Source: Candidatus Methanomethylophilaceae archaeon
Lineage (GTDB): Archaea; Thermoplasmatota; Thermoplasmata; Methanomassiliicoccales; Methanomethylophilaceae
Assembly (NCBI GenBank): GCA_944320495.1
Contig: CALUHR010000006.1
Coordinates: 1-64,000 of the forward strand
Length of the DNA stretch: 64,000 nucleotides
Direction: 5' to 3'
Shown here: piece by piece, positions 16,147 through 63,849 of the stretch
Numbering within the stretch: position 1 is the first letter of the stretch
Layout of the letters: every line of letters starts with the position of its first letter
Position numbers and translations under genes: made by a program
Notes under the pieces: model-generated
Told to the model about the DNA's origin: nothing
What the model saw: only the letters and a program-made list of their open reading frames with translations
The model's database searches: none

Positions 16147-17469
16147 ATGTTCAAGACGATCGAGCTGAGGAACTACCGCGTCTTCGACCACGTGGTTTTC
16201 GATCTCACGGGGCCTAGGGATTCCGCCCTGGACTACGCGGTCGTCTACGGGAGGAACGCATCTGGGAAGACTGCGTTGATCAACTCGGTGGAGTTCCTGA
16301 AGGCCGCCACCATCTCGTTTCCGATCCTCATGGACAGTCTGGAGGCCATCAATCCCTCCGATATGGACCGTGTCTTCGTGGAGAACGGCGGCATCAGGGT
16401 AGTAGCCAAGGACATATCTGTGTTCGCAAGATCGAACGTGATGAAGCAGGCCGAATCGCCCATGTCCATGCGCTACAGGTTTGAGGTGGACGGCAGGGAC
16501 GCGGAGTATGCGATGGATTTCTCTCCGGATGGGGGAAGGCTGGTCTCCGAGCGTCTGCGCTACGTGTCCCCGAAGGCCCGGACCGTCGAATACTACTCAG
16601 TGGAGGGGAGGGACGGTTCACCGCTGGTGTCGTTCAATGACAGGGTGTTCCCGAAATCCGAATTCAGGGAATGGGTCGAGAGCCAGGCGGAGCAGTGGTG
16701 GGGCAGGCAGACGTTGCTGTCCATCATCATGTACGGCGCCCTAATCCGCAACAGACCCTACATGGAACGGGAGATGCCCTGCCTGATGAAGGTGGTGGAC
16801 TATATTGATCAGTTGAACTCGACCATGTCCGGATTCGGAGGGGAGGTAGGGGGCAGAATCGAGGCGTCCCCCATGCACGGGTGGATCGGAACGGAAGATA
16901 TGAGGGTCCTGGAGGCGTTTGAGAGCGCCCTGGACCGCTTCATGACCCGTGTGGACCCGGACCTGGAGTCCGTGGGATACGAGACGTGGGAGAGCGAGAG
17001 CGGCCGTGTGGAGTATACCCTGTTCTTTGATAGGCGCATAGCCGGGAGAATCAGGAGGGTCAGGTACATGGACGAGTCATCCGGGGTGAGGAAGCTGGTA
17101 TCACTCTTCCCGCGTCTCCTCGGGTGTGCCAACGGCAGGGTGGCGTTCATCGACGAGATGGACACGGGGATACATGACAAGCTGATGCGCGATCTCTTCA
17201 TGCAGATCCTCCCGGACATGAGGGGACAGCTGATTGTGACTACGCACAACACGAGCCTCATGGAGGGTCTGGACCCCAGGAAGGCGTTCATCATTGAGGT
17301 GGACATGGACGGTGTCAGGAGCATCAATCCGATCTCAGACATCGCTCGGACCCGTAGGAACAACAACAATCGGGACAGGTACATGCGCGGGGATCTGGGA
17401 GGGGTGCCGCACATCTCGTACGTCGACATGGAGAACATAGCGGAGCATCTGAGGGAGGACCTCGATTGA
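16147..17469 (+). CDS. ABC/AAA_21-type ATPase (AbiEii/RloA/AriA-like)
   Basis: YGRNASGKT Walker A, ESSGVRKL signature, FIDEMDTGIH Walker B, QLIVTTHN. Confidence 0.88.
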   Translation: MFKTIELRNYRVFDHVVFDLTGPRDSALDYAVVYGRNASGKTALINSVEFLKAATISFPILMDSLEAINPSDMDRVFVENGGIRVVAKDISVFARSNVMKQAESPMSMRYRFEVDGRDAEYAMDFSPDGGRLVSERLRYVSPKARTVEYYSVEGRDGSPLVSFNDRVFPKSEFREWVESQAEQWWGRQTLLSIIMYGALIRNRPYMEREMPCLMKVVDYIDQLNSTMSGFGGEVGGRIEASPMHGWIGTEDMRVLEAFESALDRFMTRVDPDLESVGYETWESESGRVEYTLFFDRRIAGRIRRVRYMDESSGVRKLVSLFPRLLGCANGRVAFIDEMDTGIHDKLMRDLFMQILPDMRGQLIVTTHNTSLMEGLDPRKAFIIEVDMDGVRSINPISDIARTRRNNNNRDRYMRGDLGGVPHISYVDMENIAEHLREDLD

Positions 17470-18074
17470 GGGCGAACCAGGTCATCATAGCAGCCGGTAG
17501 GTCCGAGGTCATCCTGTTCAACGGCATCTATTCGGCTATGTCGGTGGATGCGGCGGTGTTCAGCAGGAATGGGGGGAGGCAGGGGATATCTATCTCCCAT
17601 CTCCCGCAGATTCTCGCATCCTCACCGTTCGACTCGATCAGGAACGTTTCGAAGGCGTTCCCAGATCATCTGGACTACAATAGGGGGATGATTCCGGGAT
17701 TCCGCATCTTCCCGGTGGTGGACTTCGATGGTGACAATCGCGACGTGCTCCCGTATGTGACGGGCAACTACCTCCAGGGAGTCCCGCTGTCAGGATATGT
17801 CACTCCTATCCTCAACTATCCATGTCTGGAGGGGGTCATGGAGGACATGGGGTACGGAGGACCCGAGGACGGCAACGAAAAGGTCGACTTCTACCACGGT
17901 CTGGTGAGGAAGATTGGCAACAGGGAGGGGATTCTCCAGTTCTATGGGAATCTGGTGGATTGCGAACTGACTAACATGGACCAGGTGCTGTACCACGTGA
18001 TGAGCAGGGTGCCAGCGTTCCAGGACTCGGTGGAGGAGCCGAGGGAGAAGGGATGGGACATTGCAAGAAGGTGA
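17466..18074 (+). CDS. TOPRIM-like partner protein of the ATPase
   Basis: TTG start overlapping ATPase TGA; IIAAGRSE (catalytic-Glu-like) and FPVVDFD (DxD); fold is inference. Confidence 0.65.
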   Translation: MRANQVIIAAGRSEVILFNGIYSAMSVDAAVFSRNGGRQGISISHLPQILASSPFDSIRNVSKAFPDHLDYNRGMIPGFRIFPVVDFDGDNRDVLPYVTGNYLQGVPLSGYVTPILNYPCLEGVMEDMGYGGPEDGNEKVDFYHGLVRKIGNREGILQFYGNLVDCELTNMDQVLYHVMSRVPAFQDSVEEPREKGWDIARR

Positions 18075-18382
18075 CGGCGGCACAGTCCGAGTCCAACGCT
18101 GTTCCCCGTCCAGGCGAGTGGGAGGGATAGCATTCTTCCTTCCCCAAGAGATTCTCAGCCGTGTACTATTCTCGCGAGTTCCATCAACGGTCTCCCAAAT
18201 CGACCTGAGCACAGTGTTTCGGTTTGGGAAGCCGTTGATACCCAACGAAATCGTTCGAACGGGTCTGGTAACCGATAGAAAATCGCCCCATTCCTATCCG
18301 ATTGGCCAAGATGCATGAGAACATGTTCACCTATCCAACGAGAATCGGGATTCGATAGTACACCCGGTTGGGAATTTCTTGT

Positions 18383-21966: not shown

Positions 21967-21969
21967 GTC

Positions 21970-22860: not shown

Positions 22861-23106
22861 AACCGATCGCGGACGGCCTTCGACGGGCCGTCCGCGTATT
22901 CGAGGGCGTGTCGCATCCCCGATTCAGGACTCTTGGAGAACAGAGGGATCGGCAACTCAGAAAAAATGGAAGACCACTGGGTTTGTGGCTCAGTTTTCTC
23001 GTCTCTCCGACATACCCAGACTCGTGCATCTGGATCCATGTCGGATTTGCGGTGAGATGAGGCGTCCGGCGACACAATCAAGGTCCGATGTCCCATCCCG
23101 TCACAC

Positions 23107-23451
23107 ATGACGTCCGTCATCTTCGTCCGCATGAACACCTGCCAGAGATACGCTAGGGTGGCCGTCTCCAGGCGTGACGACGGGGACATGGACGTGAGGA
23201 TCGAATCGGACTGCGATAACATCGTCGAATATGCCAGGCGTCTCCCGGCGATATCGGACATGGACGTTCTGGATCCCGGCAGCGGACGCATCTTCGACTC
23301 CGAGGTCCGCGGACCGCTGACCCCCACGTGCCTCTGCCCCATGGGAGTGATCTATGCAGCATCGATGGAGATGGGCCTGATGACAAAGCGCATCTCGGAG
23401 GCCGTGTCCTCGGACCAGATCGACCTCACGCACTGCACGGAGGAGGATCGA
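23107..23451 (+). CDS. Hypothetical methanogen-type protein (ends at CGA; TGA 8 codons later)
   Basis: C...IESDC...TCLCP.G Cys pattern; host codon bias. Confidence 0.6.
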
Positions 23452-23494
23452 TGCGGGCATGTCCGGCCCTTCTGAAAAGTCGGAAGTCGTTTGA

Positions 23495-23514
23495 GGAGGG
23501 CCCTAGGGCCCTCC
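23495..23514. terminator. Perfect 20-bp palindrome between convergent genes
   Basis: GGAGGGCCCTAGGGCCCTCC; bidirectional-terminator role is inference. Confidence 0.55.
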
Positions 23515-23517
23515 AGT

Positions 23518-26500
23518 TCAGTCGGTCACGACCCTCACGACGCTGCCCTCGCGGGTCCTGGTTACCTCGACCTTGCGGTCAATGCGCTCCCTGAGCAGGT
23601 CCACGTGTGAGATCACGCCGACCATCACGTCCCCTGCCATCAGTCCTTCGAGCACGCGTATGGCCTGCTGAAGGGAGTCCGCGTCCAGGGACCCGAACCC
23701 CTCGTCGATGAAGAGGGTCTCCACCCTGATCCCTCCGGCTGACATCTGGACCGCGTCCGACAGACCCAGCGCCAGCGAGAGGGCTGCCTTGAAGGACTCC
23801 CCGCCGGAGAGGGACTTCACGCTCCTCGTCTTCCCGGTGTGGTTGTCCACCACGTCGATGTCCAGGGCGCTCTGGGACCTGTTGTCGGCGTCGCGTCTGC
23901 GCACCAGCTCGTACCTCCCTCCGGACATCTCCGCCAGCCTGCGGTTCGCGTGCACGAGCACGCGGTCGAAGTAGGCGGTCTGGATGTACTGCTCGAACTG
24001 GACCTTCCTGGTGCCGGCCAGCTTCCCGTTGGCCACGTCGCTCATCAGCTGGACGTCGTTGAGCTCCCTCTCGCACGCCTCGAGCTTCGCAGTTCTGTCC
24101 TCGAGGAAGTCCAGCACGGACCTGTTCGTGTCCAGTCTTCTTGAGACCGCGTTCTGGCGGTTCTCCGCTACGGTCTTCGCCTCCATGGCCGCGTCCACCG
24201 CCCCGCGGAGGGCGTCGATGTCCGGACGATCCATGTCCTGGAGCTCCGACTCCAGGCGGACGACTGCGTCGGATGCGGACCTGACCGCGGCGGCGTGATC
24301 TTCGATGGTCCTGCTGGCGGCGACGGTGTCGAACTCCGCGAGGGAGTCCAGCTCGCCCTCGGCCATCGAAATGGACGAGAGCATCCCGTCGAGTTCCGAC
24401 CTGTCCTGCCGTATGGCTGGCTCCAGCTCCGATACGCGTTCCGCATATCCGGAGGCCTCCGCCTCTGCGGACGCGAGCTCCACGGAGAGGCGTCCGGCCG
24501 CCTCGTCCGCCTCCGCCGATTCCATTTTCGCGACGGCGATCGAACGACGGTGCGACTCCAGGGTCCTCCTGGCGGTCGCGGCGTCGGGGAACTCCAGGGA
24601 CTGTCTCAGGGAAGCGAGCTCCGATTCCAGGGATGCGATGCGGATGCCGGCTTCGCCGGCGACGGCCTTGGCAGCCTCCAGACTCTCCCTGGAAGATGCC
24701 AGGACCCTCTCACGTTCCGCGAGCTCCTCTTTGGCGTCCTCGATGCTCTTGATCACGGCCACCGCCTCGGAGACCGCCATCCGGGCGCCCCTCGCGGCAT
24801 CGCCGGCCTCGGAGCACAGGCGGTCCAGTGCTTCGGCCTGCCCCTCGGCGTCAGAATCGGTGCCGGTGTATTCGGACACTCTCACGAGCATGGAGCGTAG
24901 CTCCGCCCTGGCCGTGGCAAGGGATGAGGCCAGCTCCGACCTCTCGGAGTCGCTTTCACCCTTCCGCTTGCGGAGCGACTTCAGGCGGGATTCCGTGGAC
25001 ACCTCTGGGGGTGCCACTGCGGGCGACGGGTGGTGCACGGATCCGCAGACCGGGCAGGGGACGCCCTCGGAGAGGGACGACGCCAGGATGCCGGCCTGGG
25101 ACCTGAGGAACAGCGATTCCGCATCCTCCAGCTCGGCGGCCAGCCTGGTCGACTCCGTGTCGATGTCTGCGAACCTGGCCTCCATGCCCTCGATGGCGCG
25201 GGCTGAATCGATGCATCTGACGGCGAGGGCCCTGGCCTCCTCCAGCGTCCTGATCCTCTCCTCCGCGGCTGCGCAGTCCCTGCGGGCCGCCTCCAGCCTC
25301 GCCCCCGCATCCGGCGACCCTTCGATCGCGGGGCGCAGCCTAGCGATCCCCGCTTCGGACTCGGATACGCTGTCGGACGCCGATTTTATGTCCTCAGCTG
25401 CCCTCTCCGCAGCCGTCCTGGCCTCAGACAGTTCGTTCTCGATCTCTGCGACCCTGTCGTAGGACGGCAGGGACCTCTCGATCCTGTCGCATATCGGGAT
25501 GAGTGCCTCGGTCTCGGCCATGGCGGCCATTGCCGCCTCCTGTCTCGCCGCCGCGGTCTCGAGCTTCGCCTTGGCGGTCGCCACCCTCTCTTCGGTAGAT
25601 TCCAGCGATGAGCGCACGGCCGCGAGGTCCGCCTCCCTGGTCCTAAGTCTGTCCCTCACAGACACCAGCGGCGCGATCCCAGAGGCCCTGTCCCTCCTCA
25701 CCGCCAGCTCCGATATCTCCGCATCCTCAGCGCGCAGCCTTTCCAGCTGCGCGAGGGATTCGGTGAGCTGGTCGAACCTGGATGCGACGGTCTCGGCGCG
25801 GGTGACCGCTTCGATGGCCCCGCGGTGCGCCTCCTCGAGCCTCTCACGCTCGGCCGATATCGCGGAGATCTCCGCCTCGCCGGCCATCACTGCTCTTCCG
25901 AGGATGTCCCTGGCGGCGTCCCTGGTGACGGACGTCAGGTCCTCGTCCACCTGGGCGGTCCCGAGCCTCTCGTCGATGTCCCTCGAGTACCCGTTGTATA
26001 CATCGCGCTTCTCCCTGCAGATCTCGTCCAACCTGTCCTGTATGACCTTGAAGCGGTCGGTGGAGAACAAGGTCCTCAGAATCTCCGTGCGCTCCCTGCT
26101 GTCGGTGTCCAGGAGCTTCACGAACTCGCCCTGGGCGAGCATGGAGACCTGTTTCCACTGGTCCGCGTCCATGCCGAGTATCTCTGTCACGCGGGCGGTG
26201 ACCTCCTTCGGCTTCGAGAGCGTTGGACTCCCGTCCTCGAACAGTTCGGCCTTGGCCGTCTCCGTCGTCACGTTCCCCCTGCGGTTCACCCTGCCGTACG
26301 GGGGCTCCCTGTGGACCACGTACCTCCTGCCGCGGTGCTCGAACTCCAGCTCCACCCAGGGCTTCGTATCGGTGATGTCGCTGCGGAGCATCCCCTGGTC
26401 CCTGCGGCCGCCGCTGGTCTCGCCGAAGAGGGCGTAGCACATCGCGTCGAAGATCATCGTCTTGCCGGCCCCGGTGCTGCCTGTGATCAGGAACAGCCCC

Positions 26501-26580
26501 CTGTCCAGCCTCGAGAAGTCTATGTCAGTGCGCTCCGCGTACGGGCCGAAGGCCTCCATGGATAGGCGGAGCGGCTTCAT
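23518..26580 (-). CDS. sbcC: SbcC SMC-family ATPase
   Basis: AFGPY, GSTGAGKT, coiled coil with CPVCG hook, LSGGE, FIDEGFGSLD, ISH. Confidence 0.95.
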   Translation of the reverse strand: MKPLRLSMEAFGPYAERTDIDFSRLDRGLFLITGSTGAGKTMIFDAMCYALFGETSGGRRDQGMLRSDITDTKPWVELEFEHRGRRYVVHREPPYGRVNRRGNVTTETAKAELFEDGSPTLSKPKEVTARVTEILGMDADQWKQVSMLAQGEFVKLLDTDSRERTEILRTLFSTDRFKVIQDRLDEICREKRDVYNGYSRDIDERLGTAQVDEDLTSVTRDAARDILGRAVMAGEAEISAISAERERLEEAHRGAIEAVTRAETVASRFDQLTESLAQLERLRAEDAEISELAVRRDRASGIAPLVSVRDRLRTREADLAAVRSSLESTEERVATAKAKLETAAARQEAAMAAMAETEALIPICDRIERSLPSYDRVAEIENELSEARTAAERAAEDIKSASDSVSESEAGIARLRPAIEGSPDAGARLEAARRDCAAAEERIRTLEEARALAVRCIDSARAIEGMEARFADIDTESTRLAAELEDAESLFLRSQAGILASSLSEGVPCPVCGSVHHPSPAVAPPEVSTESRLKSLRKRKGESDSERSELASSLATARAELRSMLVRVSEYTGTDSDAEGQAEALDRLCSEAGDAARGARMAVSEAVAVIKSIEDAKEELAERERVLASSRESLEAAKAVAGEAGIRIASLESELASLRQSLEFPDAATARRTLESHRRSIAVAKMESAEADEAAGRLSVELASAEAEASGYAERVSELEPAIRQDRSELDGMLSSISMAEGELDSLAEFDTVAASRTIEDHAAAVRSASDAVVRLESELQDMDRPDIDALRGAVDAAMEAKTVAENRQNAVSRRLDTNRSVLDFLEDRTAKLEACERELNDVQLMSDVANGKLAGTRKVQFEQYIQTAYFDRVLVHANRRLAEMSGGRYELVRRRDADNRSQSALDIDVVDNHTGKTRSVKSLSGGESFKAALSLALGLSDAVQMSAGGIRVETLFIDEGFGSLDADSLQQAIRVLEGLMAGDVMVGVISHVDLLRERIDRKVEVTRTREGSVVRVVTD

Positions 26581-27701: not shown

Positions 27702-27829
27702 GTTCTCCCTCCTGTAGGCGGAGGCTCCGCCCAATGTATTGGGAGATGGTTTGACTGTATATAACATTTACATTTTTTGTAAAATCGTGACAATAAGTGT
27801 AATATACACTTCTCACTCTTTACACATCC

Positions 27830-28327: not shown

Positions 28328-28576
28328 GAACCGGGCGGCAAGGGGTTGTGCAGGTATAGGTGAGAAAGCAGAGCCGCCCGTGCCCCGGTACGTTACCGCA
28401 TGCGTCCACCTCCGTGATGGCGCGGAGAGCGGATGGGATGAATCGCCGGATGCAGATGGAACTGCCTTTCGGCCCTGTGTCCGACATTCCGCGCCATGGA
28501 TCCGACGTGGTCGGGTACGGTATTAAAGGGCGAGCGTCAGTGCAAGTATGCATGAATACTATTGGATGTGTATTAC

Positions 28577-29035: not shown

Positions 29036-29102
29036 GCCCGTCCATGCTGTCCTGTGATAATATTCTTAATGGATTCGTCGGTACGGAGGCAACGGAACGA
29101 TC

Positions 29103-30035: not shown

Positions 30036-30036
30036 A

Positions 30037-37451: not shown

Positions 37452-37458
37452 AACCATC

Positions 37459-51312: not shown

Positions 51313-51372
51313 TCAAACGTGGAGGGGTCCGCCCCTCCCTTCCTTTATATCCCCAATCCGCATCGTCGGCAC

Positions 51373-53631
51373 ATGGTCAGATTCTCCTGGGACAGTGTGG
51401 GCTTCGTATCCCAGGGCTCACGTGTGGACAGGACATACTTCCCGGCGGACTTCTCGGAGGACATCGAGCTCCACCGCGGGGAGGAGGGCCGCGAGTGCCC
51501 GTACGTGCCGTCCGGATACGCGAGCCCGGACTACTCCGTCCTGGGGGACGACCAGGTCAGATACTACCTGTGGTGGAGGTCCTGTGCCGAGGCCGGGGTC
51601 ATAGACAGTTCCGACGAGGGGTACGCCTGGCTCTACTGCAGGGAGCTCATAGAGTCCCCCGGGGACCCGAGGGATACGCTGTCGAGGATAGTGGCATTCA
51701 CCCGCACCTGCGGCACCAGCCTGAGGCTGTCCCCCATGGTCGCCTCCCTCGCAGCCGACTACGCCATATCGAAGGGGCTGCCGCTGGACCTGGTCCCGAG
51801 GGACCGCAGCTTCGCGGCCTCCGACGCACTCATCACATGGGACCTCACCCGGTACCCTATCGGGGGGACCTTCCCCGGTGCGCTGATCCCGGCGGACGTC
51901 TACAACTGGAGGAGGCTGTTTCCGAAGCTGGGGGACGAGACAATGGAGGAGATCGTCCTTCTCAGTCTGAGGGGTATCGACGAGATCGTCCGCTCCACCG
52001 AGGGGATGGGGCTCATCAGGGCGATCGGCTGCGTCCCCGAACCGTCGGACATCGTGCCCCTGGCCAGGTTCATCCGTCCTGAGGACTACCGGACGGTGAC
52101 GATGCCGGTGGTCCCGAGGGAGAGGGGCCCGTACGCGCATCTGGTGGACGCCGTGATCAGGCAGGCCGTCCGCTTCATGGTGCCTCGGGGAGGACCCTCC
52201 GTGCCGAGGACGTTCCCGAAGGGGTGGCGCCGCGCCGTGGCGGCCGCCGTGGACGCCGCGGTCAACGACTGCGGATGGATGGCATCCATGTTCAGGGACG
52301 GCGACGAGGGGTACTGGGAGGACGACGACCTCATAGTTCGCAGGGGCGACGACCGCCCCCGCATCATCCCGCAGCAGATCGGGGTGATGGAGCCGGGACG
52401 TCCCAGGATGTCCATGCGCGAGTTCATGTCCCACTGGTCCGACGAATCCGATGTCAGGGTGGACTACGTTCCGTCCGGGAGGACGGAGACGACGTACTCG
52501 GCCATGGACGACGGACAGTTGGCGTTCTACAGGTACTGGCGCACCCAGGCCCGGAAGGGGAGGTTCCTGGACACCGACCAGGGGTACCTCTGGCTCTTCT
52601 GTACCGAGGCCGTCAACATAGACGATGAGCCCGAGGCCATCCAGGGGATGTTCGAATCCGCCCTGGAGGCATATGCCGGTAGCAACGGCCTCGCCCCGTT
52701 GAGGATCGCGGCCAACGACCACGCCGTGCTGCACCACATGGACACGCCCTCGGACACCGACCACAGGATGTCTCGCTACGTGGCGTACGCCAAGCTGGCG
52801 TCCGACCCCATCGGCAGGATGGACGTGGACATGGCGGACCAGCTGGCACACTATGACTCGTCGAAGTACACCTCCGCCGAGCCCGACCTCCACGGCATCG
52901 CCTTCACCGAGGCGGTCAGGGCGGTGGACTCGTACATGCTCGAGAACAATGGCAAGAGGCTCGTCGACCGCTGCACCATGAGGGAGATGGAGGGCACCAT
53001 GAGGCTCTACAAGGGCCTGTGGACCTCGGAGTCCGTGGTCCTGGGCGTGGAGTTCAAGGACGTCCTGTCGTCGAGGAGGATCGAGTCGCTGATCGACGGC
53101 ATCTACCGTGTGTCCATCCGCACGGTCAACAGGAGCCTCGGCGACCCGGCACCGCGCTATCCGAAGGACCTGCCGGATGCCATGATCAAGGTGGCCGAGG
53201 ATGCGGTGGCTGCCCTGATGGACCGCCGCGACATGGAGAGGGAGGACGACCTGGCCAGGATGGAGGCGTCCAGGATGGTGCTGGACCGCGACGCCGTCGA
53301 ATCAGCCGCCAGGGACCTGGAGGCCGTCACGGGCATGATGGCAGTGGACGACGATGACGACGAGATCGAGGAGGTCCCGATCGTCGCGTCCCCGGACGGG
53401 GGGTGGGACGGGCTCGTCGCCTCCCTCGACGATGCCGAGACCGCCTATCTTCACGATTCACTGACCCCCCGCGGGGCGGGCCCGTGGTCACTCGAGGGCA
53501 CCGGGAGGCGCCCTTCGGAGGTGGAGGACGCGGTAAACTCAAAGGCGATGGACGCCATCGGGGACGCCATCGTGGAGGGCGGAAGGGCCGTCGAGGACTA
53601 CGCCCCCGACATCGAGGGTGCTCTCAGATGA
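51373..53631 (+). CDS. sngA: Shango SngA-like protein: two TerB_N-like domains + TerB_C
   Basis: Two copies of Y.PS...P/TY..L/M...Q..YY..WR......D.D.GY.WL; C-terminal LD...I.....DL..V..M and IN.K.....GD.I. Confidence 0.8.
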   Translation: MVRFSWDSVGFVSQGSRVDRTYFPADFSEDIELHRGEEGRECPYVPSGYASPDYSVLGDDQVRYYLWWRSCAEAGVIDSSDEGYAWLYCRELIESPGDPRDTLSRIVAFTRTCGTSLRLSPMVASLAADYAISKGLPLDLVPRDRSFAASDALITWDLTRYPIGGTFPGALIPADVYNWRRLFPKLGDETMEEIVLLSLRGIDEIVRSTEGMGLIRAIGCVPEPSDIVPLARFIRPEDYRTVTMPVVPRERGPYAHLVDAVIRQAVRFMVPRGGPSVPRTFPKGWRRAVAAAVDAAVNDCGWMASMFRDGDEGYWEDDDLIVRRGDDRPRIIPQQIGVMEPGRPRMSMREFMSHWSDESDVRVDYVPSGRTETTYSAMDDGQLAFYRYWRTQARKGRFLDTDQGYLWLFCTEAVNIDDEPEAIQGMFESALEAYAGSNGLAPLRIAANDHAVLHHMDTPSDTDHRMSRYVAYAKLASDPIGRMDVDMADQLAHYDSSKYTSAEPDLHGIAFTEAVRAVDSYMLENNGKRLVDRCTMREMEGTMRLYKGLWTSESVVLGVEFKDVLSSRRIESLIDGIYRVSIRTVNRSLGDPAPRYPKDLPDAMIKVAEDAVAALMDRRDMEREDDLARMEASRMVLDRDAVESAARDLEAVTGMMAVDDDDDEIEEVPIVASPDGGWDGLVASLDDAETAYLHDSLTPRGAGPWSLEGTGRRPSEVEDAVNSKAMDAIGDAIVEGGRAVEDYAPDIEGALR

Positions 53632-54890
53632 CCGCAATTCCGAAGAGGACGCTGACAACGATGATGAACGCCCTGGCGTCCGGCGTGGTCCCCCGCAGGG
53701 GGCTGGAGTACATAGCCGTCGGCAGGCGCAGGGAGACCGAGACGTTCGTCTCCGACCTGGAGGACACCGCCGAGGGCGGAGGGGCGTTCAGGTTCATCTC
53801 CGGCCGCTACGGCAACGGCAAGAGCTTCATGATCCAGATGGTCAGGAACTACGCGATGGACCGCGGGTTCATGGTCATGGACGCCGACCTCGCGATCAAC
53901 AGGAGGCTGACCGGGAGCAGGGGCGAGGGCCTCAACACCTACCGCGAGCTGGTCCGCAACATGGCGGTCAAGGCCCGTCCGGACGGAGGGGCGATGGAGT
54001 CCCTCCTGCAGAACTGGCTCTATCCGATCATCGACTCGGAGGGGGATCCGGAGAGGGTGGCCTCAGCGATACGCTCCGCGACCTCGGGCATGTCGGGCAT
54101 GACGTTCTACCGCGACTTCGTCACGATAGTCATCTCCTACTCCAAGGACCTGATGGACCAGCGCGACGACAGCCCCGCGCTCCGCTGGCTCAAGGGCGAG
54201 TACGACCTCAAGTCCGAGGCCAGGAGGGACCTCGATGTTTCCACCCTGATCAGCGACTCCAACTGGTACGACTACGTCAAGCTCTGGGCGGAGCTCTCGG
54301 TCCGCGCCGGATACAGGGGGGCGGTGGTCTTCCTGGACGAGGCGGTGGTCCTGTACAAGCTGCAGAACCGCGCATCCAGGAGCAACAACTACGAGCGCCT
54401 CCTCACAATATTCAACGACATAATGCAGGGCAAGTCCTCGCATCTCTCCATGTACGTGTGCGGGACCCCGGAGTTCATAACGGATCCCGACAGGGGCCTG
54501 TACAGCTACGAGGCGCTGAGGTCCAGGCTCGTGTCCGGGAGGTTCGAGAACGGCTACGACAACTACCTCGGTCCGGTGATCAACCTCCGTCCCCTGACCA
54601 ACGAGGAGGTGTTCGTGCTCCTTCGCACGCCCCGCGGGTTGCACGAGCAGCGCTACGGCTACGAGTCCGGCATAACGGACGACATGCTCGAGTCGTACCT
54701 CAGGACCGTGACGGCGACCATCGGAGGAAGGGACATGGTCACCCCCAGGGAGATCACCAGGGACTTCATCAGCCTCCTGGACACCCTCCACCAGAACCCC
54801 CAGACCCGCTTCTCGGACATGATCGAGGGCCATTCCGTGAAGGCCGACCGCAACCCGGACGACGACCTCATCGACGACCTCGAGCTATGA
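53628..54890 (+). CDS. sngB: Shango SngB-like DUF2791 P-loop ATPase
   Basis: GVVPR.GL..IAVGR, G.YGNGKSF, FLDEAV, NYE.LL, YEAL.SRL. Confidence 0.88.
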   Translation: MTAIPKRTLTTMMNALASGVVPRRGLEYIAVGRRRETETFVSDLEDTAEGGGAFRFISGRYGNGKSFMIQMVRNYAMDRGFMVMDADLAINRRLTGSRGEGLNTYRELVRNMAVKARPDGGAMESLLQNWLYPIIDSEGDPERVASAIRSATSGMSGMTFYRDFVTIVISYSKDLMDQRDDSPALRWLKGEYDLKSEARRDLDVSTLISDSNWYDYVKLWAELSVRAGYRGAVVFLDEAVVLYKLQNRASRSNNYERLLTIFNDIMQGKSSHLSMYVCGTPEFITDPDRGLYSYEALRSRLVSGRFENGYDNYLGPVINLRPLTNEEVFVLLRTPRGLHEQRYGYESGITDDMLESYLRTVTATIGGRDMVTPREITRDFISLLDTLHQNPQTRFSDMIEGHSVKADRNPDDDLIDDLEL

Positions 54891-57004
54891 CCGACTTCCT
54901 GGAGAGGATGCCGCCGTTCCTCAGGGAGCGGATACACGCCGAGGGCTGGAGGTCCTGGCGCGGTGTCCAGGAGGACTCCTTCCGGGTGCTCTTCGATTCG
55001 GGGGACCATCTTCTGATCTCGGCCGGCACGTCTTCCGGCAAGACGGAGGCTGCCATGATCCCGGTGATATCATCGCTGGCACTGGATCCGCCGGAGGGCG
55101 TCGGCGCGATCTACGTGGGGCCGACCAAGGCGCTCATCGACGACCAGTTCGCCCGCCTGGACAGGATGCTGAGGGACTCCCCCGTGGAGGTCACCGGTTG
55201 GCACGGCGACATATCCCAGGCGTCCAAGGAGAGGCTGAGGAGGGATCCCAGGGGGATCCTTCAGATCACACCGGAGTCCCTCCAGGGCGTGGTCTGCGAC
55301 CGCGACCTCGTCGGGAGGATGTTCCCGGACCTCCGCTTCGTCGTCATAGACGAGGTCCACGCATTCATGGCGTCGGACCGCGGGCTCCAGCTCCTGTGCG
55401 AGCTGGACGCCATCGAGCGCATCGCCGGGTGCTCGCCCAGGAGGATAGGGCTGTCCGCCACCCTCTCGGACACGGAGGGGGCCGAGGCGTGGCTCCGCGC
55501 CGGCACTGACCGCGGCATAAGGACGGTGTCCTCGAATGACGGCGTGCCGTGCAGGGTCGGTGTCAAGTACATGCGCATCCCCGCGGAGGGAGACGCCCGC
55601 AAGCTCGCGGTGCTCTCGTACTACAGGGAGCTGAACCGTCTCACCGACCCGTACTCGTGCATCGTGTTCACCAACAGCCGCGCCTCCGCCGAGAGGACCG
55701 CCCGGTCCCTGGACAGGGTGGCGCGCTCCGAGGGGTCCGGGAACCCGGTGAGGATCCACCACGGTTCCCTCGCCGCCTCCGTCCGCAGGGACGCGGAGGC
55801 GGATCTGAAGGAGGGCAGGCATCCCACCGTGGTGGCCACCTCCACCCTGGAGCTGGGCATGGACATCGGGGGCCTGGACCGCGTGGTCCAGATCGGCGCC
55901 CCCTACACCTGCTCGTCCATGCTCCAGCGCATGGGCCGCACCGGGCGCCGCGGGGGCAGGAGGGAGATGATCGTCTTCTGCACCGACGACGAGTCGAAGT
56001 GGTCCCCCTCCCCGCCGGGGACCTCCATGGACCTGGTCCGCGCCATCGCGGTCAAGGAGCTGGCCGTCGGAGAGGGATGGACGGAGCCGATCGAGCCGAA
56101 CCCTCTGCCGTTCGGTCTGCTGTACCATCAGACGCTGGCATACCTGAAGGGCGCCGACCACGACGTCAGGTGGCCGGAGCTGAGGGACACGTTGCTCGCG
56201 ATGTGGCCGTTCAGGAACATCTCCGGCGAGGAGTACAGGGAGCTGGCCATGCACATGCTGTCCCTGGGGCACCTGCAGAGGATGGAGGACGGCACCCTGC
56301 TCATAGGGCTGAAGGGCGAGCCCATCGCCAACGGCAGGGACTTCGCCTCCACCTTCGAGGTCCAGGAGTCCGTGGAGATACGCTCCGGCGGGGAGGTCCT
56401 GGGGACGGTGCAGGGCAGGCCGAGCGAGGGGAAGCTGGTCTCGCTGGCGGGCAAGGTGTGGCAGGTGATACGCGTCGGGGACGGATGGGCGGATGTCAGG
56501 GAGGTTCCCGAGGGCTCCGCCGAGTCTAAGTGGGAGTCGATGCCGCCGGATGTCAGCGACGAGGTCGCCGCCCGGATGAGGGAGGTGCTGGGCGGGGACT
56601 CCGCGTACCCGTACCTGGACTCGTCGGCGAGGGCGGAGCTGGAGGAGACATGCGCCGTGTTCCGCGAGAAGGGGTACAGCGGCGCGGTGGAGACGTCCGA
56701 CGGGTTCATCCTGTTCCCCTGGGTGGGGACCCGCATGTTCGAGACGATCCGGAGGGCGCTGATGTGCATCGGAGCGCAGGTGCCCATGCACGCGTCGCCA
56801 CTGTGGATGCGCGTGGTGACCGACCTCACCTGGGAGGAGGCCAGCGTGATGATCGCAGAGTACATCCGGTCGGTGGAGCCTGAGGATCTGGTTCTTCTGG
56901 AGGATGTGGAGGACATGGGGAAGTACGAGAGGTTCGTCCCCGAGGGGCTGAGGGCGAGGGAGTTCGCGGCGCACAGGCTGGATGTTAAGAAGCTAGTCCA
57001 GTGA
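54887..57004 (+). CDS. sngC: Shango SngC-like Lhr-type DEAD/DEAH helicase
   Basis: AGTSSGKTEAA, PTKALIDDQ, ITPESL, DEVHAF, LSAT, HHGSL, TSTLELG.DIG, QRMGRTGRR. Confidence 0.9.
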   Translation: MTDFLERMPPFLRERIHAEGWRSWRGVQEDSFRVLFDSGDHLLISAGTSSGKTEAAMIPVISSLALDPPEGVGAIYVGPTKALIDDQFARLDRMLRDSPVEVTGWHGDISQASKERLRRDPRGILQITPESLQGVVCDRDLVGRMFPDLRFVVIDEVHAFMASDRGLQLLCELDAIERIAGCSPRRIGLSATLSDTEGAEAWLRAGTDRGIRTVSSNDGVPCRVGVKYMRIPAEGDARKLAVLSYYRELNRLTDPYSCIVFTNSRASAERTARSLDRVARSEGSGNPVRIHHGSLAASVRRDAEADLKEGRHPTVVATSTLELGMDIGGLDRVVQIGAPYTCSSMLQRMGRTGRRGGRREMIVFCTDDESKWSPSPPGTSMDLVRAIAVKELAVGEGWTEPIEPNPLPFGLLYHQTLAYLKGADHDVRWPELRDTLLAMWPFRNISGEEYRELAMHMLSLGHLQRMEDGTLLIGLKGEPIANGRDFASTFEVQESVEIRSGGEVLGTVQGRPSEGKLVSLAGKVWQVIRVGDGWADVREVPEGSAESKWESMPPDVSDEVAARMREVLGGDSAYPYLDSSARAELEETCAVFREKGYSGAVETSDGFILFPWVGTRMFETIRRALMCIGAQVPMHASPLWMRVVTDLTWEEASVMIAEYIRSVEPEDLVLLEDVEDMGKYERFVPEGLRAREFAAHRLDVKKLVQ

Positions 57005-57120: not shown

Positions 57121-59883
57121 ATGGAATCCTCTGGAGAACGGGCCTCCAATCTGTCGGTGAGGGCGAGATCCCTTTGGGCGAAGGTCTCGAATCAGAGAGG
57201 TAGCTCCGATTGGCTATCGCTTCCAACCCACATGAGCGACTCATGTATGGTATGCAGGGAGATCTGGAATGATTGGGTCAGTCCGGCTGTGAAAAGCATC
57301 ATTGTTCGTGGGATTAGCATGTCCGACGGTTCCGATGCTTCTTTGGAAACGGCAGAGGGATTGGCATTGTTTCTTGCCGCCGCTCACGATCTTGGCAAAG
57401 CGTCCCCCGCGTTCCAATGTAGGATCATACCATCCAATCTTGATATTCAGGAGGAATGTCGTCAGAGGCTGGCAGGTTCAGGTCTTGAATTGAATCTAAA
57501 TCTAAGCCAGTCTCATTCCCCGAAGCACGCTATCATCTCGGAGATGATCCTTGAGAGGAATGGAATCGACCGTACCATTGGTGTGGTTCTAGGAGGGCAT
57601 CATGGTAAGCCGCCGGGTTTTGCGGATCTCGAGAATCTCAGCGCTTACAGCGGACACACGGGATCGAAATCGAAGTCATGGGTAGAGGTGCAGGACGAGC
57701 TCCTGGTTTTCGCATGCCAGCTGTCATCATTCGATCTCGGGATGGTGCGCCAAATAAGACTGGATCTCCAATCGCAGGCTGTACTGACAGGTCTCGTGAT
57801 AATGTCCGATTGGATGGCCAGCGATGAGACTCTCTTCCCCTATTCGGAGGATGGGATCGGACAGTCGACATCCGAGCGCATCGGGGAGGCATGGGCCAGC
57901 ATAGGTATCAGGAGATGGGATGCGGAAGACGAATGGTCGTCATATGACCTCTACGAGGGAAGGTTCGGATTCACGGCCAGGCCATTCCAGAGAGCAGTGG
58001 CGGATGTCGCAGCCAATGTCTTCGGACCATGTATGATTGTGATCGAGGCACCGATGGGTGAAGGTAAGACAGAAGCTGCCCTGGTGGCCGCAGAGACGCT
58101 GGCGAGCAGATTCGGGGATGGGGGAGTGGTATTTGCGCTGCCTACACAAGCCACCGCTGACGGGATATTCAAGAGATTCCTGGATTGGGCAGAGAAGGCG
58201 TCCCCTGGTTTCGATCGTCATTCGATATTCCTCGCTCATGGGAAATCCAGATTCAACAATCAGTTCAACAGGCTCAGATCTTCAAATATGAGGGTCGGGG
58301 GCGAAGATGGCAACTTGGTGTCAGGCAACATCGTAGCCATGGATTGGTTCAGCGGTCGCAAGAAGGGGCTGTTGTCCGATTTCGTCGTAGGGACTGTTGA
58401 TCAGGTTCTAATGGCTGGTCTTAAGCAGAGGCATCTGGCCTTGAGGCATCTGGCCTTGTCAGGCAAGGTCGTGGTGATTGACGAATGTCATGCTTATGAT
58501 GCTTACATGGGCAGTTATCTCTCACTCGTGCTGCGTTGGCTGGGGTCTTACAGAGTGCCCGTCATACTGATGTCTGCCACTCTTCCCTCGGGGACCCGTA
58601 GGATGCTCATGGAGTCCTACTCCAACAGTAGCGTCGATCAAACCGAAGAGGATTCCATGGCGTATCCGAGGATTTCCGTAGTGGATGGAAACGAGACATC
58701 CTATGTATTTCCCGGTTCTTCATCAAGAAGGTATGATGTCAGAATCGAGCGCGTCACGGATTCGGAGATGATGGACAAGCTGCATGCATTTCTGCAGAAC
58801 GGGGGATGTGCCGGTGTTATAGTCAATACCGTTGCCCGTGCACAGGGATTCTACGAGAAACTGAAGTCAGAATACCCAGATGATCGTGTAATTCTCATCC
58901 ATTCTGCGTTCACCGGAACCGATCGTTCGGTCATAGAGTCGGATGTCATGGATGCTCTGCATGAGGCCCACAACACTCAGCAGACGAGGACGATCGTTGT
59001 CGGGACACAAGTGTTGGAGCAATCCCTGGACATTGACTTCGATTTGCTGGTCAGCGACATTTGTCCCATGGATCTGCTGATCCAGCGTATCGGACGTCTG
59101 CACAGGCATGACAACCCGCGTTCCTCCAAGATGGCCGAAGCGACATGTCTGGTCCTCGACACAGATAGTGAGGAATTCGAGAAGGGTTCGGAGGCCGTCT
59201 ACGGCAGATTCCATCTGATGAATGCCCGTCTGCTCCTTCCGGAATCCCTGAACATACCGGACGATATCCCGAGGTTGGTCGAATCCGCTTACGATCCATC
59301 CGGGATCCCATGGGGGACGGAAGTCTTCGAGGATTATCTCGATGCCAAAAGGGATGATAGTGACCTGATATCAATCGAGAGGAGGAAGGCAAGGGCTTTC
59401 CAGATCTGTCGTCCGGACAGGTCTCCGGAAGGCGATGGCAGTCTGGTGGGATGGCTAGAGATGGCCCTGTCGGACAAAACCGAAAGAATGGCGGAATGCA
59501 CAGTCAGGGATGCAGATCCGTCGGTGGAGGTCATCCTGGTATGTCGCGATCATGCGGGGAATTTCAGAACTTTGCCCTGGGTGGGGGAGACCGGAGGTTC
59601 GATCATACCTCCGGATTCCTGTCCGGATGTCGGATTGGCATACGAGATGGCAGGGTGCAAGATACGCCTGCCGGGCAGATTGACCCGCAGGTACAACATA
59701 GATGAGACTGTGAATAAACTAGAGTACATTATATAGCAAAACATCATACCTCAGGTGTGGCAGGAGTCCCATTGGCTCGCAGGGGAACTCTTCCTCCTGT
59801 TGGATGAGGACCTGACGGTGACGTTCGAGGGGCTCAGGATGAGGTACGACAGGGAGTATGGAATGAGGGTTTGCGATGATCGA
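57121..59883 (+). CDS. cas3: Cas3 HD nuclease-helicase (type I-E), internal TAG at 59734-59736, CGA end
   Basis: HDLGKA, GGHHG, SDWMAS, APMGEGKTEAA, DECHAYD, MSATL, TQVLEQSLDIDFD, QRIGRLHRH; Cas3-like tail WQES.WL.GEL.LLLD...YD.EYG lies after the TAG. Confidence 0.92.
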
Positions 59884-61426
59884 GAAAGAATTCAACCTGA
59901 TCCGCGAGAAGTGGATACCGGTGATGAAAGAGGATGGGACGATCGAGGAGGTGGGTCTGGAGGATGTGCTGGTCCATGCCCACGAGTATCTCCGCATATC
60001 GAGTGAACTTCCTACCTTGGACTATGCTCTGATGAGGCTTCTGATGGCAACGGCCTATGCCGCCAACCGCGGATGGCTGGATGGGATCGATGATGTGGGG
60101 TCCGCCACATCATCATGGAAGCAGGTCATGGATGCCGGCAGATTCGACGAGTCCGCCATCAGAGGATATCTGGATAGGTACGAGGACAGGTTCTACCTGT
60201 TCCATCCGACGCGTCCATTCTACCAGGCCCCGATCGACAAAGGGACGGAGTACTCCGCAGCCAAGCTGATAGGGACGCTTTCCGAGAGTTCCAACAAACC
60301 GAGGTTCTTCCAGATGGTGAGCGGTGTTGCCAAGGAGAGCATAAGCTATCCGGAGGCGGCCAGATGGCTACTCCATGTAATCGCCTATGATGATACCTCG
60401 GCCAAGCCGACCGTTCCAAAATCCGGGCTCCCATCGCCAGGTGCGGGATGGGTTGGCAAGATCGGGCCAGTGTATTTCGCAGGGGACAACCTCTTCCAGA
60501 CGCTGCTCCTGAACATGCCGTTCTACAATATGATCCTGAACGAGCCGTTCACTGATGGCGTGGCAACGTGGGAACCAGAGGTCGCGAACGTCACAGAACG
60601 CAGGGAGATCCCCCTGCCGGGAAGCCCCATCGAACTTCTGACCATCCAGTCCAGAAGGATACTCCTGAAGAGGAACGGGGAGAGAGTCACAGGATTCCTT
60701 CTGCTCGGCGGGGACTTCTTCCAGAAGGAGAACGCGTTCATCGAACAGATGACGGCTTGGCATCGCACCAAGGAGGGAGGATGGGTGCCGTCGAGGCACG
60801 ATCCTGCCCGGTTCATCTGGCGTGATTTCAATCCGCTCCTCTTGGAGCGTGATGAGGACAACAACCCTGGCGTGGTGAAGTGGGTGTCCCGTCTGGCGAG
60901 CCGTGGAATCATAGCGAAGGGCAATGTCAGGCTGACCACCACTGCCGTGACCTATGGCGACAAGGATTTCGTAGCAACGGGTGTGGTAAACGATGCCCTG
61001 TCGCTGAATTCCCAGATTCTCTCCGATCTCGGCAGGAACTGGAGGGTCCGCATCTCGGATTCCCTCGACTCCACTGATCAATGTGTCATGGCATTCGGGA
61101 GATTCGTACAGAACCTGGCCGTGGCCGAAGGGGAGGATGAGAAGTCATTGGACCTGCCGAAGTTGCGTTCCGTGGCCATGGAGCAGGCTTACTTCAGACT
61201 CGACAAACCGTTCAGGGTCTGGCTCTCAGCCATCGATCCCGATTCGGATTCAGAAGACGACAGGATCGCCGAGTGGGAGCGTCAGATGCGCTCCCTGCTC
61301 TTCTCCATGGCCGATGACATGGTGAACGGATGCAGTATCAAGGCGATCACTGGTCGCGATATGGAGAGGAACGCATTCAGCAGACTTCAGTTCTTCAAAA
61401 ACACGGTCAACAAGATCCTGAGGTGA
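59876..61426 (+). CDS. cas8e: Cas8e (CasA/Cse1)
   Basis: FNLI.E.WIPV, RFYLFHP..PFYQ, EAARWL, G.NLFQTL.LN, EQMT.W. Confidence 0.92.
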   Translation: MIEKEFNLIREKWIPVMKEDGTIEEVGLEDVLVHAHEYLRISSELPTLDYALMRLLMATAYAANRGWLDGIDDVGSATSSWKQVMDAGRFDESAIRGYLDRYEDRFYLFHPTRPFYQAPIDKGTEYSAAKLIGTLSESSNKPRFFQMVSGVAKESISYPEAARWLLHVIAYDDTSAKPTVPKSGLPSPGAGWVGKIGPVYFAGDNLFQTLLLNMPFYNMILNEPFTDGVATWEPEVANVTERREIPLPGSPIELLTIQSRRILLKRNGERVTGFLLLGGDFFQKENAFIEQMTAWHRTKEGGWVPSRHDPARFIWRDFNPLLLERDEDNNPGVVKWVSRLASRGIIAKGNVRLTTTAVTYGDKDFVATGVVNDALSLNSQILSDLGRNWRVRISDSLDSTDQCVMAFGRFVQNLAVAEGEDEKSLDLPKLRSVAMEQAYFRLDKPFRVWLSAIDPDSDSEDDRIAEWERQMRSLLFSMADDMVNGCSIKAITGRDMERNAFSRLQFFKNTVNKILR

Positions 61427-61431
61427 ATGAT

Positions 61432-62031
61432 ATGTATGATACTGCAGACGCAGTCCACAGATTCGTGAAGGGGAGGATAGCCGTCCTGCAGACGGACGAT
61501 CCTCAGAACAAGGCGAGGCTCGCCGTCCTCAGGCGCGGTCTCGGAAAGGACCCTGCGGATTCCGCGGAGGTCTGGTCGATAACCATGGAAGGCATCCCAG
61601 ATGAGCTTACCGCTAAGGGCAGCGGCATCATCCAGGCCACCGATGCGGAATGGGCCATCCATACTGCCCTCACACTCTACGCGCTGCACAGGCAGGGCTC
61701 GAATGCCCAGATGAGTACATCCGAACGCTCTTTCGCATCGGCCATCCGTCTTCTCACGGACCCGTCCGATGAGTCAGGCGGACCCGTGAAGAAGCGCTTC
61801 GATGCGCTGGTGACCTCGGAGAGCATCACGGAGGTCGCCAATCATGCGCGCAGGATCGTGCAGCTTCTCAAGGCGTCGGACAGGCCCATAGCATTCGACT
61901 ATCCAGCCCTTGCACGCGATATCTATCTCTATGGGATGCCGGGCGGCAGGCGCGCCGTACGTCTCAGATGGGGCCAGGACTATTTCAGGGCAGAGAAAGC
62001 AGACAGGAATGAGGAGAACAAGGAGGAATGA
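61432..62031 (+). CDS. cse2: Cse2 (CasB/Cas11)
   Basis: LA.LRRGLG, E.A....L.LYALH.QG, RF.AL, DY..LA.D, WG.DY. Confidence 0.92.
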   Translation: MYDTADAVHRFVKGRIAVLQTDDPQNKARLAVLRRGLGKDPADSAEVWSITMEGIPDELTAKGSGIIQATDAEWAIHTALTLYALHRQGSNAQMSTSERSFASAIRLLTDPSDESGGPVKKRFDALVTSESITEVANHARRIVQLLKASDRPIAFDYPALARDIYLYGMPGGRRAVRLRWGQDYFRAEKADRNEENKEE

Positions 62032-63134
62032 AAATGGGAAACAACAAGAGAATGTACATAGACATACATGTGATTCAGACGATTCCGCCCAGCTGCGTGA
62101 ACCGCGATGACACAGGCAGCCCGAAGACGTGCACATATGGGGGCACCAACCGTTCGAGGGTGTCGTCCCAGAGCTGGAAGAGGGCTGTCAGGGAGTATTT
62201 CAAAGGAACAGTTGATGAAGGGGAGCTCGGAACCAGGACGAAGAAGATTGTCGAGCTCGTGTACGAGGAGATAGTCAGGCAGGACCCTTCTATCCCCGAG
62301 GCAAATGCACAGAAGATGGCCGTGGACGTCCTGACTGCAGCCGGCATCCAGATTGCGAAGAAGAAGGGCAAGGATGACGATGGGGATGATGTCCCGGAGG
62401 CCAAGGCTCTGTTCTTCATGAGCAGGAAGCAGGCGGAGAACGTAGCCGCTCTCGCGATTGCAGGGGGTTACGACAAGAAGAAGGCCCAGGCCGCCCTAAA
62501 CGCCGGTACCGGCATCGACATAGCCCTCTTCGGTCGCATGGTGGCCGATGATCCTAGCATGAACGCTGATGCCTCGGCGCAGGTGGCACACGCCATCTCC
62601 ACCCATCGTGTCACGAACGAGTTCGACTACTACACGGCGGTGGACGAGAGATCCCCTGCCGACAATCCCGGTGCAGGGATGATCGGTACCATCGAGTTCA
62701 ATTCGTCGACGATGTACCGCTATGCCACGGTGGCCGTCCATGATCTCGAGAGGCAGCTGTCAGATGACCCATCGGTAACTGCCATCGCCGTGAGGGAGTT
62801 CGTCAGGGCGTTCATACTGTCCATGCCCACCGGAAAGATGAACACGTTCGCCAACAGGACGATCCCCGAGTACGTGCTAATCGAGCTCCGCGATGATCAG
62901 CCGGTCAACTGCGCCGCGGCCTTCGAGACCCCGGTTCAGCCTGGAAGGGACAAGGGCGGATACTCGGAGAACTCCGTCAAGGCTCTAGAATCATATGTCT
63001 ATTCGATACGTAGCTTCGTTCCGCCGGCAATCAGGGAATGGCGTATCAGCGGAGGCGTGGACACGGATGCAGAGACCGTCAGTCTCCAGGCGGCCCTTGA
63101 TCAGATCGTGTCAGCGATCTCCGAGGAGCAGTGA
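62028..63134 (+). CDS. cas7: Cas7 (CasC)
   Basis: IH.IQT.PPSCVNRDDTGSPKT, RVSSQSWKRA.R, DIALFGRM.A, QVAHAISTH, DY.TAVD. Confidence 0.96.
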   Translation: MKMGNNKRMYIDIHVIQTIPPSCVNRDDTGSPKTCTYGGTNRSRVSSQSWKRAVREYFKGTVDEGELGTRTKKIVELVYEEIVRQDPSIPEANAQKMAVDVLTAAGIQIAKKKGKDDDGDDVPEAKALFFMSRKQAENVAALAIAGGYDKKKAQAALNAGTGIDIALFGRMVADDPSMNADASAQVAHAISTHRVTNEFDYYTAVDERSPADNPGAGMIGTIEFNSSTMYRYATVAVHDLERQLSDDPSVTAIAVREFVRAFILSMPTGKMNTFANRTIPEYVLIELRDDQPVNCAAAFETPVQPGRDKGGYSENSVKALESYVYSIRSFVPPAIREWRISGGVDTDAETVSLQAALDQIVSAISEEQ

Positions 63135-63135
63135 G

Positions 63136-63849
63136 ATGCCTACCGTGCTGCTGAGGCTGGCCGCGCCCATGCAGTCATGGGGTGTGGACAGTGTATACAA
63201 CACGAGATCCTCGGGCGTGATGCCATCTAAGAGTGCCGTGATAGGGCTTGTGGCCTCCGCCATGGGGCGCTCGAGGCGTGATGTGCTGGACGATCTCAGC
63301 GACCTCAGGTTCGGTGTCAGGGCGGATCAGCCCGGAAGGATGATGAGGGATTACCAAACGGTCGGGAATCCGAAGAAGGACGAGGTCATGTTCACCATCG
63401 ACCGTTACTATCTGTCGGACGCCATATTCCTGGCAGGTCTGGAAGGGGATGCGGGCATCGTAGGGGACATAGACGCAGCTCTAAAGAGCCCCATGTTCCC
63501 GCCGTTCCTCGGCAGGCGCTCATGTCCTCCCACCCAGCCTCTGTCGTTGGGCGTCCGTGATTTCGGATTGACAGAGGCGCTGTCACAGGAGGGGTGGCAG
63601 GCATCCGCATGGTACAGACGCAAGTCCCTGCCGAAGGTCAGCCTGGAGGCGGTCATGGATTCCGATGCCGAAGGGGCGGATTCCATGGTGCGCGATGTGC
63701 CGGAATCGTTCGATCCCAGGCGTCGCGAGTACGGATACCGCCAGGTGCGTCATGTTCTCGATTTCGTATCGTTCGATAATCCGGACAGTCGCAGAAAACC
63801 GATCGTCACGGATCACGACCCCATTTCAGTGATCAGGGGGTCCAGCCGA
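63136..63849 (+). CDS. cas5: Cas5 (CasD), CGA-terminated
   Basis: L.L.APMQSWG, PSKSAVIGL, R.YL.DA.F, LGRRSCPP; first CGA overlaps the cas6e ATG by 1 nt. Confidence 0.94.

Follow-up and report, generated by a model that had tools for sequence, protein, structure and literature searches.

Sense codons that have become stop codons are, to our knowledge, accepted for organelles only: AGA and AGG in vertebrate mitochondria (NCBI table 2), TCA in Scenedesmus (table 22) and TTA in Thraustochytrium mitochondria (table 23). Here we examined the codon CGA in a 64,000-nt window (positions 1 to 64,000 of contig CALUHR010000006.1, assembly GCA_944320495.1) of a Candidatus Methanomethylophilaceae archaeon, and in the genome to which the window belongs (G000; 1.77 Mb in 14 contigs, 61.6% GC, with the window at C6:1-64000). 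The lineage consists of free-living archaea whose relatives in animal and human guts include cultured ones; chicken-gut metagenomes contain DNA of this organism, and its release factor aRF1 shares 92% identity with the one from Candidatus Methanoprimaticola sp. MG2, all other matches being metagenome-assembled genomes (MAGs) of Methanomethylophilaceae. The evidence, which is a genomic and comparative pattern throughout, makes it likely that CGA serves in this organism as a fourth, somewhat leaky stop codon, with programmed read-through and feedback on aRF1. A CGA stop is not established for any free-living organism, and our literature search found no paper that establishes one in any prokaryote.

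The organellar codes resemble the present case in that the former sense codon has gone from the inside of genes and is placed at their ends. They belong, however, to tiny genomes that lack the cognate tRNA, whereas this is a free-living archaeon with ∼1,700 genes in which the tRNA is kept and in-frame copies of the codon appear to be read through. A second likeness is to bacterial prfB, the gene of release factor 2, which is autoregulated by an in-frame UGA via a +1 frameshift. In both prfB and the archaeal aRF1 gene described below, a release-factor gene carries an early, conserved codon on which its own product would terminate; prfB needs the frameshift, whereas the aRF1 frame simply continues, and read-through, probably by tRNA-Arg(UCG), would yield the complete aRF1.

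Among codons of mixed meaning, UAG is ambiguous (stop or pyrrolysine) in pyrrolysine-using methanogens including Methanomethylophilaceae (PMC12626013). There too a single codon both ends translation and is decoded within one cell, and the lineage is the same, but UAG is a stop that gained a sense meaning through a dedicated tRNA and synthetase, whereas CGA would have gone the opposite way, from sense to stop. CGA is not mentioned in that paper, a 2025 PNAS study of stop-codon use in Methanomethylophilaceae (PMC12626013). In bacteria, CGG is unassigned in Mycoplasma capricolum, and CGA and CGG have changed to Trp in Absconditabacteria (PMC8629427). These are likewise CGN arginine codons that drop out of use and change meaning, but they occur in AT-rich genomes and go from sense to sense or to unassigned, while here the genome is 62% GC and the codon ends genes; the program Codetta is unable to infer stops (PMC8629427). 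The closest precedent is the suggestion that CGA is possibly a stop in two hydrothermal-vent archaeal MAGs in which CGG has changed to Trp (bioRxiv 10.64898/2026.04.02.715157). As in our genome, CGA is absent there from recognisable domains, and the stop hypothesis was raised by the author. The vent archaea differ in lineage and habitat and lack tRNA-UCG, and their gene ends were not put to a test, whereas the present analysis covers gene ends, the stops of orthologues and the aRF1 site.

CGA inside and at the ends of genes in the window

Gene models between positions 16147 and 63849 were set with CGA as a stop and named from Pfam. There are 33 of them, and the choice of start codons is supported by Pfam models that begin at residue 1-5 (SbcC at 26580 and a BrxC/D-like ATPase at 53628). 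Their 13,646 codons hold no internal in-frame CGA: the 984 arginine codons include 392 of the CGN box, made up of 77 CGT, 274 CGC, 41 CGG and 0 CGA. If CGA matched the other seven four-fold boxes in their share of A-ending codons, 41 CGAs would be expected at the mean share (9.5%) and 9.9 at the lowest share (CTA, 2.5%), and the probability of finding none is 1e-18 to 5e-5. The 27 genes that end at TGA or TAG were also counted alone (11,978 codons, 0 CGA, P ≤ 2e-4); with the count so restricted, the absence of CGA is not circular. A first-pass annotation of this DNA had reported the same absence from a manual count, extending it to genes that appear to be acquired, and both statements now stand on firmer ground. 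Seven genes of low GC content at third codon positions (GC3), namely an LRR protein gene, cas3, cse1, cse2, cas7, cas5 and the open reading frame (ORF) at 17466, contain 0 CGA in 3,142 codons, where 4.4-15.8 would be expected.

Off frame, CGA is found in the same window genes at 43 per 1000. The first-pass annotation had also pointed to CGA as common in non-coding frames, and in the leader of the gene that starts at 1683 (1632-1682, + strand) three in-frame CGAs do fall within 17 codons, as codons 4, 12 and 15 of the 1626-2192 frame. The off-frame copies bear on an explanation by C-to-U RNA editing, which would make UGA from CGA in transcripts. The two codons are one transition apart, but an editing enzyme is blind to the reading frame and the off-frame CGAs are abundant inside genes; editing would also destroy the conserved in-frame CGAs of aRF1 and of the fusion linkers described below. 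We know of no mRNA editing system of this kind in archaea, and we regard editing as extremely improbable.

CGA is the terminal codon in six of the 33 window genes. Three of these lie on the + strand. The DUF6951 gene (23107-23451), in which PF22263 covers residues 7-95 of 114, ends at the CGA at 23449-23451, with the next standard stop 8 codons on. A gene for a small HTH protein (27830-28327) ends at 28325-28327, 12 codons ahead of the next standard stop. The cas5e gene (63136-63849), the one whose terminal CGA the first-pass annotation had singled out, ends at 63847-63849, 18 codons ahead of a standard stop; the match to PF09704 (model positions 1-217/217) extends to residue 205 of 237. On the - strand, the gene of a 157-aa hypothetical protein (40543-41016) ends at 40543-40545, where the standard frame would run for 50 codons more and include 3 further CGAs, and the gene of a 232-aa hypothetical protein (46706-47404) ends at 46706-46708 in the model with CGA as a stop. 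The sixth gene, also on the - strand, encodes a Hel308-like helicase (31805-34096), and its CGA (31805-31807) directly follows the conserved C-terminus ...QASLFDF. The final codon of this helicase is CGA in G000, G009 (two copies), G010 and G012. In 13 further genus members, among them the sister species G018, which is 96% identical to G000 and has TGA, a TGA or TAA stands in its place.

Coding boundaries and orthologous stops at CGA

For the genome-wide analysis, ORFs were taken from stop to stop in the standard code and scored with a codon model blind to CGA, and 756 good ORFs were retained. In-frame CGA occurs at ∼0.5 per 1000 codons in their interiors and at 13 per 1000 in the last five codons, the frequency being raised over ∼40 codons. 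The interior copies lie mostly in antisense or fused frames. A genome-wide check for internal CGA, which the first-pass annotation had proposed, is thus largely in line with the absence seen in the window, with the reservation that a few conserved in-frame CGAs exist. By class, 618 of the 756 ORFs have a standard stop only, 77 have a CGA followed by a tail that resembles non-coding DNA, 47 have a CGA followed by a tail of fewer than 10 codons, and 14 are intermediate or appear coding onward from the CGA. We estimated that CGA ends roughly 15-18% of the genes of G000. If this is true, present gene callers over-extend about one-sixth of the genes and fuse neighbouring ones.

The position of CGA coincides with a change in composition. 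When ORFs are aligned on their first in-frame CGA past codon 130, the 15 codons that precede it have a GC3 of 0.83 and the 15 that follow one of 0.60. This drop is unique to CGA among the 61 sense codons, the next largest being that of TTA (0.07, n = 22), and the median distance to a standard stop is 28 codons from CGA vs 139-237 from other codons. The third-position GC before CGA equals that before TGA stops, and the value after CGA equals that after TGA; the coding boundary is therefore CGA itself and not a point upstream. Protein family models agree. In all informative cases, full-length NCBIfam models end 0-13 residues ahead of the first CGA: the Elp3 model (522/522) ends at residue 525 with CGA at 526, the model matched by an MsbA-like protein (572/572) reaches 656, with CGA following at 659, and the model likewise ends shortly before CGA in FolC, CoaBC, ThiL, PurB, ArgD, aNOP56 and an HAD-IIA protein.

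Orthologues place standard stops at the same sites. The Elp3 C-terminus ...LPYMAKDL is found throughout the genus, and immediately after it 5 species have CGA and 9 have TGA or TAA; in two of the CGA species the open frame continues for 800-1,190 codons antisense through the convergent gene. A comparison over 400 kb of the complete genome G008 showed that the orthologues of ThiL and of three other CGA-ended genes have a stop that coincides with the aligned CGA or lies one codon away. In G008 itself (54% GC), interior CGA is found at 0.11 per 1000 vs 34.5 per 1000 off frame, and ∼3% of ORFs end at CGA. The comparison with relatives that the first-pass annotation had called for gave a contrast with an outgroup: in G024, which belongs to another family, CGA behaves like any infrequent sense codon (1.1 per 1000); it is distributed over the length of genes and marks no drop in GC3. 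We concluded that the first-pass proposal of CGA as a stop is strongly backed by the composition change-points, the ends of the family models and the TGA or TAA codons of orthologues.

These data also bear on the simplest alternative, that CGA is merely a very rare arginine codon, disfavoured by strong GC3 and AGG/CGC bias, and that the tails are translated. TTA, TTT and CAA are similarly rare in frame, and alignments put CGA opposite Arg in aRF1 and opposite AGA at the GmhA-GmhB junction (see below). However, the change from coding to non-coding is found at CGA only, orthologues carry TGA or TAA in its place, and the tails are non-coding in composition, some of them running for hundreds of codons antisense through a neighbouring gene; off frame, CGA is of the commonest kind of triplet (34-43 per 1000). 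We consider this explanation very unlikely.

Within the reading of CGA as a stop, two trends suggest that it is probably a weaker one than TGA. A standard stop follows in frame within five codons at 28% of CGA ends vs 13% of TGA ends (P = 2e-4), and CGA-ended genes become fewer as GC3 rises (21% of the lowest quartile, 11.5% of the highest). A quarter (25%) of CGA ends overlap the ATG of the next gene as CGATG, often behind a GGTGAT ribosome-binding site. Among the CGA-ended genes, a Hef homologue (L018, G000 C5:25614-27323) aligns with the Hef model over its helicase half only (513/781 positions).

In-frame CGA in aRF1 and at fusion junctions, and the retained tRNA

A screen for in-frame CGAs flanked on either side by coding signal yielded few credible cases. 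The aRF1 gene (L114, G000 C2:85942-87135) has exactly one CGA, at codon 68, which corresponds to a conserved Arg (...SIAARLKTYK), and the same holds in 15 of 16 genomes of the genus; the aRF1 gene of G005 has its CGA at codon 15 instead. Among full-length aRF1 sequences, all 36 with an identity to the query of 82.9% or more carry a single CGA, at codon 68. In genus g10 the single CGA is at codon 15 (5/5 genomes searched), and across the family CGA is confined to the first 100 codons in 68 of 80 species, at position 68, 15, 17, 1 or 40, although aRF1 holds ∼22 Arg codons per gene. In other families, the Arg of codon 68 is encoded by CGC, AGG, AGA, CGG or CGT, and CGAs are scattered along the gene. 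An early in-frame candidate terminator is thus conserved across species in a release-factor gene, as in prfB.

Two fusion genes show a comparable arrangement. A nitrogenase-like NifH/NifD-like fusion (identified by Pfam) has one CGA in its variable linker, just before a conserved CxxC, in 17/17 orthologues; TAG replaces this CGA in one paralogue (L203, G001), and the outgroup fusion is uninterrupted. In the GmhA-GmhB fusion (SIS/HAD), the junction codon is CGA in 11 of the 16 genus genomes with the gene (one codon earlier in one species), AGA in 2, TAG in 1 (L166, G017), and AAA or CCA in outgroups. In G000, no ATG, GTG or TTG occurs between this CGA and the catalytic DRDDT motif. At both fusions, a conserved in-frame candidate terminator is followed by a constrained downstream segment, which in GmhA-GmhB of G000 has no start codon of its own. 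The presence of TAG at both junction sites suggests that the two ambiguous codons may be interchangeable at read-through sites. A separate observation concerns G011, where the GmhB part (L164) has a CGA that encodes Arg within the catalytic VDRDDT motif of the HAD domain; judged from the motif, this CGA must be decoded as Arg in G011.

The conserved in-frame CGAs indicate that the codon is translatable, most simply and very likely as Arg, and that selection keeps CGA at these particular places. The absence claimed in the first-pass annotation accordingly describes the window, while the genome at large keeps apparent read-through CGAs in aRF1, in the NifH/NifD-like linker and at the GmhA-GmhB junction.

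Several observations weigh against CGA as a stop. TTA is nearly as rare as CGA in the window genes, with 2 in-frame copies, so that rarity of CGA alone is weak evidence and its position is decisive; the first-pass caution that rarity is only suggestive was a fair one. The 47 ORFs with tails of fewer than 10 codons are compatible with a sense CGA near the real end. In the aRF1 sequences compared across genomes, no residue follows the CGA trait. A gene for tRNA-Arg(UCG) is retained in G000 (C13:413317-413390) and looks normal (A20, C35 and G36; ARAGORN), and the tRNA is also kept in 12 other genomes of the genus (13 in all). A pure stop codon should have lost its cognate tRNA; the presence of the gene means that CGA is not a pure stop, and the loss that goes with a sense-to-stop reassignment is not seen in G000. 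tRNA-Arg(UCG) was not found in G005, G007, G008 and G015 (two of them complete genomes), where the best matches were tRNA-Arg(UCU) and tRNA-Arg(GCG), and a pattern search in the G008 group matched only tRNA-Pro(CGG); these four genomes without a detected tRNA-Arg(UCG) still have an in-frame CGA in aRF1.

The tRNA data are in part what would be expected if CGA were unassigned or poorly decoded, such that ribosomes stall, rescue or slow hydrolysis frees the peptide, and genes tolerate CGA at their ends. In addition to the four genomes in which the tRNA was not found, in G000 and G018 the U32/C38 loop of tRNA-Arg(UCG) is unusual and positions 31 and 39 are mismatched, and a diagnostic change in aRF1 was not found. 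Stalling would nevertheless be needed to finish about one-sixth of the genes, including those coupled to the next gene by CGATG, and the specific conservation of CGA in the release-factor gene points to aRF1 as the reader. We consider stalling unlikely.

With CGA as a leaky stop, we infer that aRF1 recognizes the codon, that Arg is inserted upon read-through and that a feedback loop results. aRF1 would terminate on CGA in competition with weak Arg decoding by the retained tRNA-Arg(UCG). Termination would win at gene ends, and read-through at the few retained internal sites would give the full-length product. At codon 68 of its own message, plentiful aRF1 would end its own synthesis, which amounts to negative feedback, and the junction CGAs of the two fusion proteins could set the ratio of short to long product. 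A wider proposal, which we put forward tentatively as a real possibility, is that CGA is a regulated dual-meaning codon in much of Methanomethylophilaceae, terminated on by aRF1 and naturally suppressed by tRNA-Arg(UCG) or, in genomes that have lost this gene, by a near-cognate tRNA, with aRF1 feedback, short and fused enzymes made in fixed ratio, and a code barrier. If CGA is indeed a leaky stop, it would represent a natural case of a release factor that captures a sense codon while the tRNA persists, and a testable example of release-factor feedback in archaea.

Two features of the aRF1 protein were noted. The motifs NIKSKTTMKN and YRCDSxFFTEP are shared across the family; they were considered as the determinant of CGA reading and ruled out, as they also occur in G076, whose cas3 and aRF1 genes employ CGA as sense. 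At residues ∼17-20, G000 and its sister G018 have RGRSTEL (STE), and all other genomes examined have RG[RK]GTEL. By our alignment, this STE/GTE loop would correspond to the GTS loop of eRF1, a helper in stop-codon reading.

Acquired-looking genes and other features of the window

The first-pass annotation had gone on to suggest that incoming genes are purged of CGA, so that the code acts as a firewall. The type I-E cas operon (cas3, cse1, cse2, cas7 and cas5; 57121-63849, + strand) has GC3 of 0.60-0.73, is patchy in the genus and contains 0 CGA. A search of 40 genomes of the genus found cas3 in 7, G000 among them, and its nearest relatives are ∼50% identical, some of them in other families. 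It has 0 CGA in 15 hosts from CGA-avoiding genera (7 in genus g1, 6 in g10, 1 in g11, and G064) and 2-11 CGAs in CGA-using hosts (G076, G142 and other families). An acquired-looking gene is therefore free of CGA in this host while homologues elsewhere carry the codon. That part of the suggestion stands, but with the nearest cas3 relatives only ∼50% identical, purging is indistinguishable from acquisition within the group that shares the code. An incoming gene with CGA would be truncated, in keeping with the lack of CGA in those window genes that look acquired. Since this would usually happen to a gene in the standard code, we infer that a barrier against such genes is a reasonable consequence of a CGA stop. 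The question bears on how a variant code limits horizontal transfer and virus host range; if the dual-meaning reading is true, gene flow and viruses would be confined to code-sharing partners.

A type I-E CRISPR array lies ∼2.3 kb past the window (G000 C6:66300-66830) and consists of nine repeats of 29 nt (GTGCTCCCCGCGAATGCGGGGGTGATCCC) and eight spacers of 32 nt. Five of these spacers were searched and gave no exact match in a viral contig collection, and a provirus search of G000 did not find the TerL_ATPase and HK97 capsid families. The stop of cas3 is TAG (window 59734-59736), the sole TAG stop among the 33 gene models, and several cas3 orthologues of relatives have one or two in-frame TAGs; TAG is probably read as pyrrolysine in this lineage.

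Upstream of the cas operon, at 48520-57004 (+ strand), genes for a P-type ATPase, a TerB_N protein, the BrxC/D-like ATPase and a DEAD helicase form a defence-island-like cluster with 0 internal CGA, and their ATGA start/stop overlaps are clean after CGA-rich leaders are left out. Elsewhere in the window, Pfam names an AAA ATPase at 16147-17469, SbcC and SbcD at 23518-27767, LonB and a BspA-type LRR protein. Of the gene names proposed by the first-pass annotation, Pfam backs cas3, cse1/cas8e, cas5, the AAA ATPase and sbcC; nadM, cinA and sngA were not found among the ∼30 ORFs searched. At 41030-42127 the candidate frames overlap: they are 41030-41620 and 41598-42089 with CGA as a stop, and 365 and 409 aa in the standard code.

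Four chicken-gut metatranscriptome runs were compared with window positions 23001-43000 and gave sparse contigs of related strains, in which CGA stops were not demonstrably covered. Within the LonB gene (36509-36585), contigs of all four runs skip 75-76 bases, which is probably a strain indel and not an RNA feature. On another contig of G000 (L003, C13:462404-463810), a family-4 uracil-DNA glycosylase (residues 7-174) and an HAD-IIA phosphatase (residues 190-443) share one frame with neither a standard stop nor CGA between them, and the locus is either a true fusion or two genes.

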